From positions 2,852 through 66,851 of the forward strand of contig CAWFPN010000010.1 of the NCBI GenBank assembly GCA_963817685.1: a stretch of 64,000 bases of DNA, read 5' to 3'. Positions 18,483 to 23,677 of this stretch are shown here, one piece after another. A program made the translations under genes and the position numbers. How positions within the stretch are numbered: position 1 is the first letter of the stretch; each line of letters starts with the position of its first letter. The stretch is from an uncultured Verrucomicrobiae bacterium. Its GTDB lineage: Bacteria; Verrucomicrobiota; Verrucomicrobiia; Palsa-1439. The notes under the pieces are model-generated. The model saw nothing but the letters and a program-made list of their open reading frames with translations. It was not told the origin of the DNA and ran no database searches.

Positions 18483-18532
18483 ATATGGAGCATGGACTAG
18501 GGTAGCCATTGCAAATGAATAGGAGAATTGTC

Positions 18533-19306
18533 ATGAAGCACGGGTTACTTAAGTCATGCGCCAGTCTCGCGGTTGGCAGTACAATCATCTTTTCACTCGG
18601 CTGCGTTGCGCAGGCCGAATCTTCCACCGACCAGGCCATCGCCAGTTCCGGCGAGTTGGCCGGCGGCGCGCCGCGCGCGCAATCAGTTTGGGCGCCCATT
18701 TACCGGCCGCCGTTCCCGAACGCCCCGCGTGTCCGCGTGGACGGCCTGTCGCGCGGCGCCAACGACGCGGCCCTGGCGTTGACCGTGCTGGCGCCGGAAC
18801 ACGTCGGGCTGACGACCAAGGACCAGCCTTCCCTGTTCTGGTTCCAGTCCAAGGCGGCCAGGACCCGGTTCGAACTGACCATCGTCGCCGCCAAGGAAAT
18901 CAAACCGATTCTCGAAACGCAGCTCGATGAGCCGACCAACGACGGCATCCAACGGTTTCGCCTGTCCGACCACGGCATTAAATTGAAGAAGGGCGTCGAT
19001 TATCGCTGGAGCGTGGCGATGGTGCTCGACCCGGACAACCGGTCGAAGGACGTTGTCGCCAGCGGCGTGATCCGGCGCATCGCGCCCAGCGCGGCGCTCG
19101 TCGAACGCCTGGCAAAATCCCCGTCGGACGCCGCGGCGATCTACGCCGACGAAGGTGTCTGGTACGATTCGATGGAAGCGCTCTCGGACTCAATCGCGCA
19201 GCAGCCGCAAGACAAGGTGTTGCACGAGGAACGCGCGATGTTCTTCATGCAAGTCGGCCTGAAAGACGCCGCCGTCTACGAAGCCCGCACCGCCAGCGCG
19301 AAATAG
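18533..19306 (+). CDS. DUF928 family secreted protein
   Basis: Start set at the ATG with an AGGAGA RBS. Signal MKHGLLKSCASLAVGSTIIFSLGCVAQA. DUF928-like blocks IYRPPFPNAPRVRVDGLSRG, VGLTTKDQPSLFWFQS, GVDYRWSVAMVL...VVASGVIRRI, IYADEGVWYDSMEALSDSI. Confidence 0.8.
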   Translation: MKHGLLKSCASLAVGSTIIFSLGCVAQAESSTDQAIASSGELAGGAPRAQSVWAPIYRPPFPNAPRVRVDGLSRGANDAALALTVLAPEHVGLTTKDQPSLFWFQSKAARTRFELTIVAAKEIKPILETQLDEPTNDGIQRFRLSDHGIKLKKGVDYRWSVAMVLDPDNRSKDVVASGVIRRIAPSAALVERLAKSPSDAAAIYADEGVWYDSMEALSDSIAQQPQDKVLHEERAMFFMQVGLKDAAVYEARTASAK

Positions 19307-19329
19307 ACAGCGCCCCTTTCCTCTGAATT

Positions 19330-19390
19330 GTAGCCGCGAAACATTTTCGCGGCTTTTGGGCAACGGACCGCGAATGAGATTCGCGGCTAC
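19330..19390. repeat. REP-like double-hairpin element with GTAGCCGC...GCGGCTAC termini (copy 1)
   Basis: gtagccgcgaaacattttcgcggcttttgggcaacggaccgcgaatgagattcgcggctac. It has 8-bp terminal inverted repeats enclosing two hairpins. Confidence 0.7.
19333..19357 (+). terminator. Rho-independent terminator candidate after DUF928 (first hairpin of the GTAGCCGC element)
   Basis: 9-bp stem gccgcgaaa / tttcgcggc with loop cat, followed by tttt. It starts 27 nt after the stop codon. Confidence 0.5.
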
Positions 19391-19410
19391 AATGAGAACA
19401 CCGCAAGCGA

Positions 19411-19488
19411 TCACCCCGAGCTTGTCGAGGGGTCTCTTCCGTTCCGTCGCCTACAGCAGAGATGCCTCGACAAACCCGGCATGACACG
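19411..19488. repeat. 78-bp hairpin repeat, copy A (downstream of tpsB)
   Basis: tcaccccgagcttgtcgaggggtctcttccgttccgtcgcctacagcagagatgcctcgacaaacccggcatgacacg, about 90% identical to copies B and C. Confidence 0.85.
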
Positions 19489-19527
19489 TCTTCACTTCAG
19501 CATCATATATATGGATGGGCGCGCGGC

Positions 19528-21192
19528 CTAAAACGCGTCAACCGTGACCTTGAAGGTCAGGCCCAGGTCCTGCAAATCGTTGTTCGGCGTCTTGATGTTC
19601 TTGAAGGCGTATCCCCAGTAAAGCTGCGCGTTCACATGGCGGTTCGGCGTGAACAGCAGGCCGGCGCCCGCGCTCCATATCGTCGTCGGATCAGGCGTGT
19701 GATTGAACGTGTTCCAGGCGCCGCCGAAATCGCAGAACGGCGCAAACTGCAGCACCGCTTCGCCGCGATGATTGAACATCACCGGCAACCGCAACTCCAC
19801 CGAAGCGTCCGCGCCCTGGTCGGCCACCAACTGGTTCACCCGGTACCCGCGCACGCTGTCGGGCCCGCCGAGGGTGAACTGTTCCAGTGACAGCAGCGGA
19901 TCGGGGCTCAACTGGACGTCGCTGCGCAGGACGAGTTGATTGGGCGTGTTGAACAGCCGCTGAACGTACTGCCCCTGGCCCAGCCAGGCGAAGAACTCCC
20001 CGTTCCGTTTCGGGTCCGAATGGGAAATGCCGAACTCATCCAACCCGACGCTGAAGGTGGAACGCAACGCCAGCACGTGGTCCTGGTTGCGGTCGGTCCA
20101 TTCCTGCCCGATGCGCAAGGCGGAGATCTCGGTGATCCCGTTGGTCGAGCCCGTGCCGCTAAAGTCGAACGCCGCGTTTCCCAGGAACGCCTTGCTGTAG
20201 CGCCGTTCGAAGGTGGCGCTCATCGCGAATTCGTCATTCGGCGTCTGGTACAACGGCTGGCGCAACGTGGCGCCGACGCGATACGATTCGCTGAAGACGT
20301 CAAGCGCCGAGAACGGTTTCTCGACAATCGAGAAGTCGTCCTTGCTCCCGTACAGCCGCAGCGTCGTGTCGTAGGCCGTCACCGGCAGCATGTAGGAGGC
20401 GGACTCGTTGTCGAAATCGGAGAACTTCCAGCCGTGATTGCCGCCTTCGGCGACGCCGTAGGTGACATCGAGCGGGTCGCTGTGGCCCGTCAAGTTGCGG
20501 TCGCCGGCCAGCAGCAGGATCTCGTCCGCGCCGACGCTCGGCGGACGGTCGTTGTCCACCTGGATGGCGAACCGGAACGGATTCGGGTCCTGCACGTGGA
20601 CGTCGAGGTAGCTCTGGCCCGGCAACGCGCCCGGTTTGAGTTCCGCGTTGACCTGCGAGACGTTCGGGTCCTGCCGCAGGAGCTGCAAGCCTTCCTTGAG
20701 CCGGTCCATGTTCAGCGGCGCCGTGGCCCAGCGGGCGAGTTTGCCTTTGATGTAGGATTTGTGCAGCCAGCGGTTGCCCGAAATGCTCATGCCGGTCAGC
20801 ACGCCCTCGGTGATCCGCATCGTGATCACGCCGCCGGCGGCCGGTTGCTCCGGCAACACCGCGCCGGAATTGACGTAGCCGTGATTGATGTAAAGCATCG
20901 TCACCGCCCGGCGCGCGTCCTCCAGTTCCTCGCCGCTGATCTCCCGCCCCGTGTACGAGGCAACGACCCCGGCCAATTCCGCGCTGGTGAACACATGGTT
21001 GCCCTCAAAGCGAAACTCGCGCACATAGATCCGCCCCGCCGTGGAGAGATTGCCGGACGACAAAGGCAACTGCAGCGCCGGGACCGCGAGCGGGTCCGCA
21101 AAAGCGGGTGCCGCGAGAAAGACGAAGAGGATAAACACCAGGATTGGACTAACAAACCTGTCACCCCGAGCTTGTCGAGGGGTCTCTGCCAT
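19528..21192 (-). CDS. Two-partner-secretion outer-membrane transporter (ShlB/FhaC/HecB family, TpsB)
   Basis: Start placed at the ATG at complement 21190-21192, giving signal MAETPRQARGDRFVSPILVFILFVFLAAPAFA. POTRA segment IYVREFRFEGNHVFTSAELAGVVASYTGREIS. Beta-barrel ending FKVTVDAF. The listed 644-aa ORF is a 5' extension through intergenic repeats. Confidence 0.8.
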   Translation of the reverse strand: MAETPRQARGDRFVSPILVFILFVFLAAPAFADPLAVPALQLPLSSGNLSTAGRIYVREFRFEGNHVFTSAELAGVVASYTGREISGEELEDARRAVTMLYINHGYVNSGAVLPEQPAAGGVITMRITEGVLTGMSISGNRWLHKSYIKGKLARWATAPLNMDRLKEGLQLLRQDPNVSQVNAELKPGALPGQSYLDVHVQDPNPFRFAIQVDNDRPPSVGADEILLLAGDRNLTGHSDPLDVTYGVAEGGNHGWKFSDFDNESASYMLPVTAYDTTLRLYGSKDDFSIVEKPFSALDVFSESYRVGATLRQPLYQTPNDEFAMSATFERRYSKAFLGNAAFDFSGTGSTNGITEISALRIGQEWTDRNQDHVLALRSTFSVGLDEFGISHSDPKRNGEFFAWLGQGQYVQRLFNTPNQLVLRSDVQLSPDPLLSLEQFTLGGPDSVRGYRVNQLVADQGADASVELRLPVMFNHRGEAVLQFAPFCDFGGAWNTFNHTPDPTTIWSAGAGLLFTPNRHVNAQLYWGYAFKNIKTPNNDLQDLGLTFKVTVDAF

Positions 21193-21238
21193 TCCGTCGC
21201 TTACAACAGAGATGCCTCGACGAACTCGGCATGACACG
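21161..21238. repeat. 78-bp hairpin repeat, copy B (contains the predicted tpsB start codon)
   Basis: tcaccccgagcttgtcgaggggtctctgccattccgtcgcttacaacagagatgcctcgacgaactcggcatgacacg. Confidence 0.85.
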
Positions 21239-21293
21239 CTCTTGTTTGAGCATGACACGTCGTTGTTAGTGTATGACACGCCCTTGTTGACGA
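21231..21293. repeat. Three tandem 21-bp units starting ATGACACG
   Basis: atgacacgctcttgtttgagc / atgacacgtcgttgttagtgt / atgacacgcccttgttgacga, with period 21 (21231, 21252, 21273). Confidence 0.75.
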
Positions 21294-21322
21294 ACAACCC
21301 TGGCGCCAGGATTGCCAAGCTG

Positions 21323-21400
21323 TCACCCCGAGCTCGTCGAGGGGTCTCTGCCGTTCCGTCGCTTACAACAGAGATGCCTCGACGAGCTCGGCATGACACG
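21323..21400. repeat. 78-bp hairpin repeat, copy C (tpsA-tpsB intergenic)
   Basis: tcaccccgagctcgtcgaggggtctctgccgttccgtcgcttacaacagagatgcctcgacgagctcggcatgacacg. The arms ccgagctcgtcgagg and cctcgacgagctcgg form a perfect 15-bp inverted repeat. Confidence 0.85.
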
Positions 21401-21430: not shown

Positions 21431-23677
21431 CTAAGGCTCGTCATGCGGGCTGCTCGATTCAAGCGACGGCTGCAGGTTGTCCGGTTCGATGGGCGCGCCG
21501 CCGCTGCCGGTCAGGATGAACGTGCTGATCCCGCCGTGTTGTTTGAGCGCGCAACTCTCGCGCAACTCCGACGCGGCATCCAGCGGCGTCTCCGCCAACG
21601 GAATCAGGCTGCCCACCAGCGCCAGGTACGGCGCGGTGACCTGGACGCTGCCTTGCAACCCAAACTGCGATGAGGCCGTGATCTTGCTTTGCGATTCGAC
21701 GAAGAAATCGGAGGTGATGTTGATATTGCCGCCATGGCCCGTGATCGCATCGGCGGTGATCTGGCTCTTGTTCAACGCGACCACCGAAGGATCGATTGTG
21801 ATGTTGCCGCCGTCGCCGTTGACCGCTGCCGCGCTGATCTGGCTGTTGAACAAGGAAACCGCTCCCAGCGTCGTGATCGTCACGTTCCCGCCATTCCCCT
21901 CCGCCTCCGCCGAAATCAGCCCATCGTTCAACTTGATGTTCGAACCTGACCCGCCCGTCACGTCAATGTTCCCGCCATCGCTCTGCGCCGATGAAACGCT
22001 CAAGTCCGCATCATTCTCAATCAGCAACAACCCCGACACCCCCAGCGCGATGCCACCCGCATCACCTGAACTGGTGGCCGAAGAGGCAATCGAAGCTCCC
22101 GTGTTCAAAGTCAGATCCTTCACCTGAATGTTGATGTTCCCCGCATCCCCCGTCGTCTGCGAAGAAGCCAAAACCTCCGCCCCATTCTGCAAAGCCATCG
22201 TCCCCGCATGAATGAGAATGTCGCCTCCCGGCCCCGTTACTGGGCCGCTGTCGTTGCGAGCTTCTGAAGAGATTCCAGTGAATGAGGCTTGATCCTTGCC
22301 ATCCATACTAATGGACGAGGCGGTGATGGTGATATTTCCGGCTGCCGATGGGCTGAAGGTCGAGGTTTGGATCGCCGCATCTGCAACCAGTTGAAGTGTA
22401 TCGGTGTTGATGATGAGGTTCCCTGCCGGTCCTTCATTACTGGTACCAAAGAGACTGCTATTCGCCAAGCGGATACTGGTGGCGGTGATGGTGAGATTCC
22501 CGGCAGCACCAGGTGTCGATGTTTGGACGCTAATGAGACTGTTCTCAAGGTCGAGCGAACCGGTCTTGATTGTGATATCGCCGGCGTTGCCTGTACTTGA
22601 TGCGTCATTCGGGAGTGTGCCAGTCGATATCGCTGCGCTGTTCTCCAGTTGAATCAAAGCTGCATTCAAATTAATGGACGAGCCATTGCCGGACTCGAGA
22701 TTCAGTGCGCTGAAAGTCGCACCGTTCAAGTCGATCACGCCTCGAACGTCCACTTCGATGCCCACGCCGTTCTGGGCGCTCAGGTTGTCTGCACCAAGCA
22801 CACTGCCGGGATCCATGCTCAGGCTGTCCGCGTTGACCACCAGCTTCCCCGGCCCCACGATGCCGTCACTGGAAACTTCGACATCGGCGGCATTGACAAA
22901 CGTGACGGCACCGAGTGTGGCGAACCCGGACGTATCCACCGTCGCCGACGGGTCGGTCACATCCAGCGCCAGTTCGCCGGGCGATTTGATGCTGATCAAA
23001 TTCATCCTGCCACCGGGCGCCAGAATGACGGCCCCGTCGATGGTGATATCGCCACCCACGAGGGAGAAGCCGAGTTGATCGGGCATGGTGAGCATGCTCT
23101 GGCTGACGGTGATTGCCCCCGGAGTGCCGCTGAGAAATCCAAAGGCGCTGACCGGCGCGGCGGTCAGCACGTCGTTGGCTGGATTGGCCGCATCAAACCG
23201 TCCACCGTCGGCCAGCTTGACGTAACTGGCGGTCGTAGCCGTGAACGCACCGCTGACGTTTACCTGGGCGTTCGGTCCGAACATCATGCCGAACGGATTG
23301 ATCAGGAAGAAGTTTGCCCCGGCAATGTCGCAATTGATCGCGCCGTCGATGCTGGAAGGACTGCCGCCCGTCACGCGTGCGATCACATTGTGGATGTTCG
23401 CCGGGCCGGTGAAATCGGCGGTATCGCCGGTCGCAAGATTGAACTGGCTGAAACTATGAAAGAGATTGTTCCCGACAGTCTTGCCCAGCGTGGCCGGGAT
23501 GATGTAGCCCGGCCCCGTAAGCGGCCCGCTCGGCCCGACGGTGCCGTCGAGCGTGACCGTGCCGGCAAGGCAGGTGGCGGCAAGCAAGAGCATCGCCGCA
23601 ATCGTAGGAGCGCCCTTCCGGGCGCGACATGCCAAGAATCGCGCCCGGAAGGGCGCTCCTACGGGACAATTACACAT
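21431..23677 (-). CDS. Short TpsA exoprotein (filamentous-hemagglutinin N-terminal TPS domain plus beta-helix repeats)
   Basis: TPS motif GNNLFHSFSQFNLATGDTADF. About 9 rungs such as AGNLTITATS, AGNITITASS, GGNVTITTLG, GGNITIDPS, GGNINITSD. C-terminus RESCALKQHGGISTFILTGSGGAPIEPD. Start ambiguous: the ATG at 23677 gives the Arg-rich n-region MCNCPVGAPFRARFLACRARKGAPTIAAMLLLAATCLAG, while the ATG at 23593 gives MLLLAATCLAG. Confidence 0.8.
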   Translation of the reverse strand: MCNCPVGAPFRARFLACRARKGAPTIAAMLLLAATCLAGTVTLDGTVGPSGPLTGPGYIIPATLGKTVGNNLFHSFSQFNLATGDTADFTGPANIHNVIARVTGGSPSSIDGAINCDIAGANFFLINPFGMMFGPNAQVNVSGAFTATTASYVKLADGGRFDAANPANDVLTAAPVSAFGFLSGTPGAITVSQSMLTMPDQLGFSLVGGDITIDGAVILAPGGRMNLISIKSPGELALDVTDPSATVDTSGFATLGAVTFVNAADVEVSSDGIVGPGKLVVNADSLSMDPGSVLGADNLSAQNGVGIEVDVRGVIDLNGATFSALNLESGNGSSINLNAALIQLENSAAISTGTLPNDASSTGNAGDITIKTGSLDLENSLISVQTSTPGAAGNLTITATSIRLANSSLFGTSNEGPAGNLIINTDTLQLVADAAIQTSTFSPSAAGNITITASSISMDGKDQASFTGISSEARNDSGPVTGPGGDILIHAGTMALQNGAEVLASSQTTGDAGNINIQVKDLTLNTGASIASSATSSGDAGGIALGVSGLLLIENDADLSVSSAQSDGGNIDVTGGSGSNIKLNDGLISAEAEGNGGNVTITTLGAVSLFNSQISAAAVNGDGGNITIDPSVVALNKSQITADAITGHGGNINITSDFFVESQSKITASSQFGLQGSVQVTAPYLALVGSLIPLAETPLDAASELRESCALKQHGGISTFILTGSGGAPIEPDNLQPSLESSSPHDEP
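23604..23662. repeat. Perfect 24-bp inverted repeat (11-nt loop) at the tpsA translation start region
   Basis: gtaggagcgcccttccgggcgcga-catgccaagaa-tcgcgcccggaagggcgctcctac. The arms are exact reverse complements. Confidence 0.9.

Follow-up and report, generated by a model that had tools for sequence, protein, structure and literature searches.

An Ssn-like hairpin repeat probably inserted in frame into the signal-peptide region of a verrucomicrobial tpsB gene

Hairpin repeats at a two-partner secretion locus

We analyzed a 64,000-nucleotide (nt) stretch of DNA, here called the window, from an uncultured Verrucomicrobiae bacterium of the Palsa-1439 lineage (assembly GCA_963817685.1, contig CAWFPN010000010.1, positions 2,852 to 66,851 of the forward strand). 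In the window, a 78-nt hairpin repeat occurs three times around tpsB, the transporter gene of a two-partner secretion (TPS) pair. The three copies, A, B and C, are probably inverted pairs of a ~29-nt motif of the Ssn/SRM type that lack an open reading frame (ORF), and the most probable history of the locus is an in-frame insertion into tpsB, followed by a duplication and then by the gain of an ATG codon. We refer to the genome of the window as G000. The genes and repeats of the locus are as follows.

19411..19488, minus strand: hairpin copy A, 40 nt past the tpsB stop
19528..21192, minus strand: tpsB, encoding a POTRA_2 domain and a ShlB/Omp85 transporter, with the ORF intact
21161..21238, minus strand: hairpin copy B, composed of two GTCA-N4-GAGyTyGTCGA-N4'-TC units as an inverted pair
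21323..21400, minus strand: hairpin copy C, perfectly paired in its stem and the orthologue of the one copy in the relative L047
21431..23752, minus strand: tpsA-like gene with a TPS secretion domain (PF05860, 1.1e-36)

Both tps genes are full length, with all of their domains and no internal stops. TpsB matches PF08479 (1.1e-17) and PF03865 (1.4e-25), is encoded adjacent to its TPS-domain partner and is 69–79% identical to its orthologues. These TPS, POTRA_2 and ShlB matches agree with the two-partner-secretion labels given to the genes in an earlier note on this DNA. Read from an ATG in the loop of copy B (21192-21190, the loop ATG), TpsB comprises 554 aa, and 238 nt separate the tpsA stop from this codon.

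The three copies share the same orientation, as direct repeats, and belong to one family, with pairwise identities over 78 nt of 92.3% (A-B), 91.0% (A-C) and 96.2% (B-C). Each folds into a single long hairpin, with energies on the minus strand, which is that of the tpsB mRNA, of -47.4, -50.5 and -59.3 kcal/mol for A, B and C, respectively. The corresponding z-scores are -5.6, -7.4 and -8.5, none of 200 shuffled sequences was as stable (0/200), and in all three cases the mRNA strand gives a more stable hairpin than the opposite strand. The description in the earlier note of three direct copies of ~90% identity, each forming a long hairpin, is therefore borne out at these coordinates, with identities of 91–96%. 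In copy C, GAGCTCGTCGA is present in both arms and creates a perfect stem, with mismatches at the same place in B and A. The paired changes in C had been read as support for selection on structure; the perfect stem is real, but selection is not singled out, since this is a single event that arm-to-arm gene conversion explains equally well.

Copies B and C differ at 3 of the 78 positions, one of which creates the ATG. Translated in the tpsB frame, copy B reads VSCRVRRGISVVSDGMAETPRQARGD and copy C reads VSCRARRGISVVSDGTAETPRRARGD. The unit motifs of copy A are degenerate (ATCA for GTCA, GGGT for GAGC). A private loop, GTTGTAAGCGACGGAACGG, is common to A, B, C and the L047 copy and occurs in no other copy, which suggests that copy A was copied locally. 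Copy A is absent in relatives at 90% and 69% identity, including the same-genus genome G001. Its 'empty' site (L048:975-990, and L049) carries TGTCAGGCCGGGCTT, which matches ~13/15 nt of the copy A start TGTCATGCCGGGTTT, including the unusual GGG of copy A. This sequence could be a deletion remnant, or a target that resembles the end of the element.

Weak Rfam matches to the Aggregatibacter small RNA (sRNA) 41 (RF02901) fall on all three copies (window 19326-19490 and 21100-21398). We rejected an Rfam identity, as sRNA 41 reached 24–32 bits where the gathering score is 97, and a microRNA model was also below threshold. Aggregatibacter sRNA 41 may itself be a similarly shaped hairpin repeat.

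The tpsA-tpsB junction in relatives

We compared the junction with that of the orthologous operon in related genomes. In G001, the tpsB ATG overlaps the tpsA stop codon TAG (ATGAACAATAG), leaving no spacer, and the TpsB N-terminus is MNNRLRDMRSNRFVAAMALALLARPAFA/QQ, where the slash here and below denotes signal-peptide cleavage. P0005, from a second genome of the G001 clade, has the upstream Met only. In other genera, no copy of the element is found near tpsB and the signal peptides are short and ordinary; in total, G001 and ten other genera have the orthologous operon without the hairpins. L047, the TpsB of which is 79% identical to that of the window, has a single copy at this junction, read in the same frame as in the window, with flanks that match those of copy C. 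The L047 N-terminus reads MTNLRSARRG..SCRACRGISVVSGGTAETPRLARGDN-LAILALLSLTLSLLSTASMLA/QQP. From metagenomes, a scan recovered a single close relative, which is a C-terminal fragment that lacks the junction. Two further features of the window junction are relevant to the comparison.

21229..21291, minus strand: three tandem 21-nt (7-codon) units, consisting of upstream flank plus the first 8 nt of the element (TGTCATrC), in frame
21289..21321, minus strand: decayed second copy of the beginning of the signal-peptide core (SLAILAPGLFV), matching NLAILALLSL after the L047 element

The length changes at the junction, of 78, 162, 21 and 21 nt, are all multiples of 3, as is the 33 nt by which the window and L047 differ upstream of the element. 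Since the ancestral start overlaps tpsA, an insertion after the tpsA stop falls within tpsB and must keep the frame. Thus, the overlap in G001 and the single copy in L047 point to the 238-bp 'spacer' being an in-frame n-region insertion that was later duplicated. The earlier note had described it as the tpsA-tpsB spacer; it is not a non-coding spacer, as the ancestral ATG reads through copy C, the 21-nt repeats and copy B into tpsB without meeting a stop.

We propose that one 78-nt (26-codon) copy landed in tpsB just past the ancestral ATG, in the common ancestor with L047. The inserted copy would have sat in its sole stop-free frame, and would have been tolerated through adding an arginine-rich peptide at a place where the n-region needs only positive charge. 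In G000, this copy and the start of the signal peptide would then have been duplicated in frame, in a gain of 162 nt that includes two extra 21-nt units, and a further copy, A, would have been placed 1.7 kb away behind tpsB. After the duplication, the loop of copy B would have acquired the ACG>ATG change.

The hairpins might instead have a role at the RNA level, as processing or stability signals, as translation brakes that set TpsB against TpsA, or as the end of the tpsB transcript, comparable to the RNase III-cleaved Correia elements of Neisseria. They form very stable RNA hairpins, more so on the mRNA strand, with two copies between the tpsA and tpsB bodies and one shortly past the tpsB stop. 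However, a signal of this kind is missing in G001 and the ten other genera, copy A is missing even in the relative at 90% identity, and the motifs of copy A are degenerate. No T-run follows any of copies A, B and C, and scans for terminators and sigma-70 promoters found nothing at the hairpins. Furthermore, what is conserved is the single arm, including its GTCA head, as would be the case for a protein-bound DNA motif. We regard an RNA-level role as improbable, and the alternative raised in the earlier note, that the hairpins set TpsA:TpsB stoichiometry, gains no support from hairpins that are missing from most orthologous operons and of which copy A is decaying.

Candidate start codons of tpsB

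In the in-frame insertion history, translation of tpsB could begin at more than one codon. We considered three main candidates.

21190..21192, minus strand: loop ATG, candidate start 1, giving 554 aa with a 32-aa signal peptide, MAETPRQARGDRFVSPILVFILFVFLAAPAFA/DP
21442..21444, minus strand: ancestral tpsB ATG, candidate start 2, overlapping the tpsA stop (ATGACGAGCCTTAG)
21136..21138, minus strand: GTG in the hydrophobic core, candidate start 3 (MFILFVFLAAPAFA), giving no charged n-region, unlike all orthologues

Further in-frame candidates are GTG 21399 and GTG 21237. The earlier note had named the loop ATG as the only plausible start, which cannot be upheld with ATG 21444-21442 and the GTG codons at 21399, 21237 and 21138 also in frame; the loop ATG is a derived, plausible start and not the sole plausible one. 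On the plus strand, copy B has CCAT at this position, compared to CCGT in A, C and most other full-length copies, and no copy other than B has a minus-strand ATG there. The ATG is therefore derived and unique to B, and the ACG>ATG change described previously is confirmed as private to this copy. The codon closes the apical loop of B via weak A-U, U.G and G.U pairs. Since C, A, the L047 copy and the family consensus all have ACG, tpsB must have been read from upstream, and not from the loop, at the time of the B/C duplication.

The ancestral ATG is in frame with tpsB over 84 stop-free codons up to the loop ATG. Stops occur at 0 of these 84 codons in the window and at 0 of 71 in L047, relative to 2-3 in each other frame, with three in each for the window, and the probability of such an open frame among shuffled sequences is 0.075 for the window and 0.19 for L047. 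The signal peptide from the loop ATG has the n-region MAETPRQARGDR, a 17-residue core and the cleavage site AFA/DP, 32 residues in all. From the ancestral ATG, the n-region would comprise 96 residues with a net charge of about +10, and cleavage is again predicted at AFA/DP. The ETPRQARGD sequence next to the hydrophobic core is element-encoded under either of these two main starts. In favor of the ancestral ATG, this codon is conserved, is coupled to the tpsA stop and has had its frame preserved. Shine-Dalgarno motifs are found at ~24% of crude gene starts in comparison to 11% in a control region, and cannot discriminate between the starts. From these sequence features, the loop ATG and the ancestral ATG appear equally likely to be the start in use, each at a little less than an even chance, while another start, or a failing gene, appears about half as likely as either.

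A crude gene finder selected GTG 21138, a pick that we gave no weight because it merely maximises the codon score. On the minus strand, copies B and C also contain, in a second frame, a 25-codon mini-ORF that opens with the ATG of TGTCATGCC and closes with the TGA of GGGGTGACA (MPSSSRHLCCKRRNGRDPSTSSG, followed by the stop). The mini-ORF in copy B stops ~22 nt before GTG 21138, from which termination-reinitiation is conceivable. In L047, an in-frame GTG lies in the loop, five codons before the ACG (L047:1787-1789), where the window copies have GTA.

A stricter version of events is that the spacer is untranslated and the loop ATG is the sole start, fixed by selection after the insertion had severed the old start. 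The derived ATG, unique among ~20 copies, gives a canonical 32-residue signal peptide of orthologue-like length, and is the start in the existing database gene call (P0002, 554 aa). Furthermore, ~3 of the 234 possible substitutions give an ATG, and with three B/C differences we estimate the chance of one arising at ~4–5%. However, an untranslated spacer needs neither an ancestral ATG kept in a stop-free frame nor indels in multiples of 3. In L047, the inserted copy has ACG, which means that tpsB functioned without a loop ATG, and the B/C duplication is older than the ATG, which has a stable stem directly downstream. Translation from the loop alone is therefore possible but doubtful. The proposal of the earlier note that the element was exapted as 5' coding sequence stands in that the element, which is absent from the junction in G001 and in other genera, now encodes the charged n-region next to the TpsB hydrophobic core; it does not stand in making the loop the sole start.

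Several points weigh against our preferred history of in-frame insertion, duplication and subsequent gain of the ATG. The multiples of three could be a coincidence, at roughly 1–2% by our estimate, and the B/C duplication and 21-nt array could be assembly artefacts. The 96-residue n-region that follows from the ancestral ATG is far longer than in any orthologue. For initiation in the loop, a 27-bp stem of -50 kcal/mol immediately downstream of the ATG must open, and no Shine-Dalgarno motif precedes this ATG, although such motifs are weakly used in this genome. Elongating ribosomes, for their part, are able to open hairpins, a point in favor of the ancestral ATG.

Another possibility is that tpsB is under inactivation, whereby insertion and duplication have crippled translation or export, and both the open frame and the ATG have arisen by chance. 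The insert is large and recently rearranged, the open-frame shuffle probability of 0.075 is not tiny, and metH, which carries an in-frame copy in the same genome (see below), is broken into several frames. In opposition to this, the 554-aa tpsB and tpsA are both complete, as described above, L047 has kept the insertion together with an intact gene at 79% identity, and the frame-preserving events were repeated. We consider inactivation to be very improbable.

Gene callers disagree at such loci, with 554 aa called here and 524 aa, lacking the signal peptide, in the relative; annotated starts beside these repeats are therefore not to be trusted. In L047, the gene call starts at an internal ATG (L047:1889) and the signal peptide is lost.

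The repeat family, its nuclease gene and comparable systems

We searched the 4-Mb assembly of G000 for the family with nhmmer and a covariance model, R1, which together provide a genome-wide copy number of ~20 full-length and ~35 partial copies. The family consensus is TGTCACCCCGAGCTTGTCGAGGGGTCTCTTCCGT..ACGGAACGACAGAGATGCCTCGACAAGCTCGGCATGACA. On a crude gene map (86% coding), 23 of 24 full copies are intergenic, often lying 15-110 nt from a gene end. The element had previously been labeled as resembling repetitive extragenic palindromic (REP) sequences or miniature inverted-repeat transposable elements (MITEs), and a dispersed, almost always intergenic family fits this label. The covariance model matched 24 of 25 genomes of the same taxonomic family, 1 of 2 from other families of the order, and 0 of 14 from other families of the class. 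A pattern scan of the genome collection found the group in metagenome-assembled genomes of Verrucomicrobiia from peat, bog and soil. The element has inverted termini, and no target-site duplication is visible in 15 flanks.

The 5' arm of the hairpin has the form GTCA-CCCC-GAGCTTGTCGA-GGGG-TC and the 3' arm, when reverse-complemented, is GTCA-TGCC-GAGCTTGTCGA-GGCA-TC, giving the general form GTCA-N4-GAGCTTGTCGA-N4'-TC. N4 and N4' are fully complementary in 69 of 110 motif matches genome-wide, with 7 pair types, versus a mean of 11.3 and a maximum of 21 in shuffled N4/N4' pairings. The mismatches of the long stem correspond to N4/N4' pairing within the arms, and each arm thus forms a small hairpin by itself. 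The ~29-nt arm is the functional unit, with the 78-nt element being an inverted pair of arms, and G000 contains ~70 such repeat units.

G000 has a single small GIY-YIG gene of its type (C18:34726-35001), which has copies of the element around it. Like this gene, its orthologues in 8 other genomes are situated between two arms.

G000 C18:34622-35239 (L027, outside the window), L028-L034, L042 and L043: GIY-YIG loci in nine genomes, with the ORF between arms

At all 10 of the loci inspected (9 genomes), a 5' arm precedes the GIY-YIG ORF, ending 15-25 nt before it, or up to ~50 nt where the arm is part of a complete hairpin. A 3' arm follows the conserved GIY-YIG core within ~35-85 nt at 9 of the 10 loci, and the tenth, L034, is a pseudogene that has a complete hairpin after the broken ORF instead. 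The inner ends of this cassette (..GGGTCTCTGTCGT / ACGGCAGAGAT..) are the same as the inner ends of the 78-nt hairpins, which therefore look like the cassette minus its ORF. The 92-aa GIY-YIG core matches PF01541 only (E = 8.5e-15), NCBIfam gave no match for the protein, and the nearest solved structures are those of UPF0213 proteins. The GIY-YIG ORF continues across the 3' arm, where the TGA within the terminal ATGACA serves as its stop codon, and two of the genes, L034 (TAA) and L043 (TAG), are pseudogenes. We also considered an origin in the REPIN system of REP-associated tyrosine transposases (RAYTs), and rejected it since 0 of 4 Y1-transposase-like genes (PF01797) have an R1 match within 1.5 kb.

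We compared this arrangement with Ssn, a single-domain GIY-YIG single-strand nuclease with the layout NTS-ssnA-NTS (Chenal et al., Nat Commun 2025, PMC11893778). The NTS/SRM repeats are oriented hairpins that are dispersed, seldom lie within genes and cluster at surface-protein genes; the NTS is CGTCA-TTCC-CGCGMAVGCG-GGAA-TC, and Rickettsia are among the genomes richest in SRM repeats (PMC11893778). Similarly, the ~95-residue single-domain GIY-YIG protein described here has on either side a hairpin repeat, itself dispersed in the genome and almost always intergenic. The arms share a GTCA head, a short stem and a TC tail with the NTS, in general form only, and both sets of repeats cluster around or bracket genes for surface and secretion proteins. 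The systems differ in that the units here are mostly inverted pairs, forming 78-nt hairpins that resemble an ORF-less cassette, and in that coding insertions in frame are present here and are not reported in PMC11893778. By architecture, we assign the hairpins and the GIY-YIG gene to a putative Ssn-type system, in which the GIY-YIG protein would be the nuclease. Counting against this assignment, the published degenerate SRM pattern, HGTCWYN(0-2)YYVSBRHN(0-5)WNVSBRGN(0-2)RNCYNB, is matched on neither strand by copy B, the consensus or a variant arm, whereas the NTS control matches. Literature searches combining GIY-YIG with MITE or REP gave nothing relevant.

A more far-reaching proposal is that the ~400-bp arm-nuclease-arm unit is autonomously mobile via the putative Ssn-type nuclease, that its 78-nt derivatives still move, and that one of these was captured via ACG>ATG as a start codon and n-region. 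We consider this whole chain of events to be unlikely. If it were true, the ACG>ATG change would have turned selfish DNA into a translation start and a signal-peptide n-region.

In its behavior, the element is reminiscent of the Rickettsia palindromic elements (RPEs), which are said to have been described by Ogata and colleagues in 2000 and are reportedly short palindromic repeats that lie in frame in coding genes and are translated in tolerant regions. RPEs are not known to have provided a gene with a start codon or with the n-region of a signal peptide. The likeness lies in a palindromic repeat that would be translated in frame in tolerant regions, here the TpsB signal peptide and a MetH surface loop, and is one of behavior; RPEs are ~100-150 bp and hence longer than the 78-nt element. 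The tpsB copy is 78 nt, a multiple of 3, has an open frame, is absent in G001 and is present in L047. A literature search on in-frame palindromic elements in signal peptides gave nothing useful.

The REP/REPIN-RAYT systems resemble the family in their dispersed extragenic hairpins, in having a single-copy gene flanked by its own repeats, and in occurring as single units and inverted doublets; however, the associated gene here encodes a GIY-YIG nuclease and not a Y1 (HUH) transposase. The Correia elements of Neisseria (CREE/NEMIS) have a TA target duplication, promoter and integration host factor sites and an insertion sequence-type origin. They are likewise MITE-like inverted repeats that are co-transcribed with their neighbors and are able to alter expression signals, but neither a target duplication in the flanks nor a promoter match is found here. 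Set beside a classical MITE, which has terminal inverted repeats, a target-site duplication and an origin in an insertion sequence with a known transposase, the family has inverted termini, a longer ORF-bearing form and no visible target duplication, and this ORF encodes a putative nuclease rather than a proven transposase. Overall, the element is best described as a putative Ssn-type repeat that behaves like the RPEs.

A second in-frame copy supports the comparison of behavior. In metH, a 76-nt copy of the repeat lies in frame (G000 C6:17431-17509, outside the window; L052 and L054) within a loop at the surface of the MetH activation domain (..SRHSELVEESQLLGGTKETPRQARGD..), forming an insert of 26 residues. 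Across genera, this loop has a related insert in G006 (CHSERSEES..) and none in G008. The MetH loop insertion is a precedent for in-frame insertion by the same repeat family. In G000, the metH sequence is spread across at least three frames, pointing to frameshifts or errors in the assembly.

Hairpin repeats of the Ssn type are a recently published kind. Their landing in frame in a signal peptide, perhaps with capture of a start codon, is a new form of a behavior that is already known. The locus would provide a stepwise, dated case of a selfish hairpin entering a gene without killing it and then becoming part of it, with three stages visible: the empty site, the single in-frame copy, and the duplicated copy with a new ATG. 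It suggests that the signal-peptide n-region is a tolerant landing zone, and the assignment would extend Ssn/hairpin-repeat systems to soil Verrucomicrobia. The inverted pairs, in resembling a nuclease cassette without its gene, bear on how such repeats multiply.

Finally, two observations concern the surroundings of copy A. A DUF928 gene (window 18509-19306) converges on tpsB, a pairing that is kept in G001 and L048, and the stop-to-stop gap between the two genes is ~12-36 nt in G001/L048 versus 221 nt here. Copy A is adjoined by a second, unrelated double-hairpin repeat at window 19327-19393 (ATTGTAGCCGCGAA..TTCGCGGCTACAAT), which neither G001 nor L048 has in the corresponding intergenic region, and pieces of which recur at ~5 other sites in the genome.

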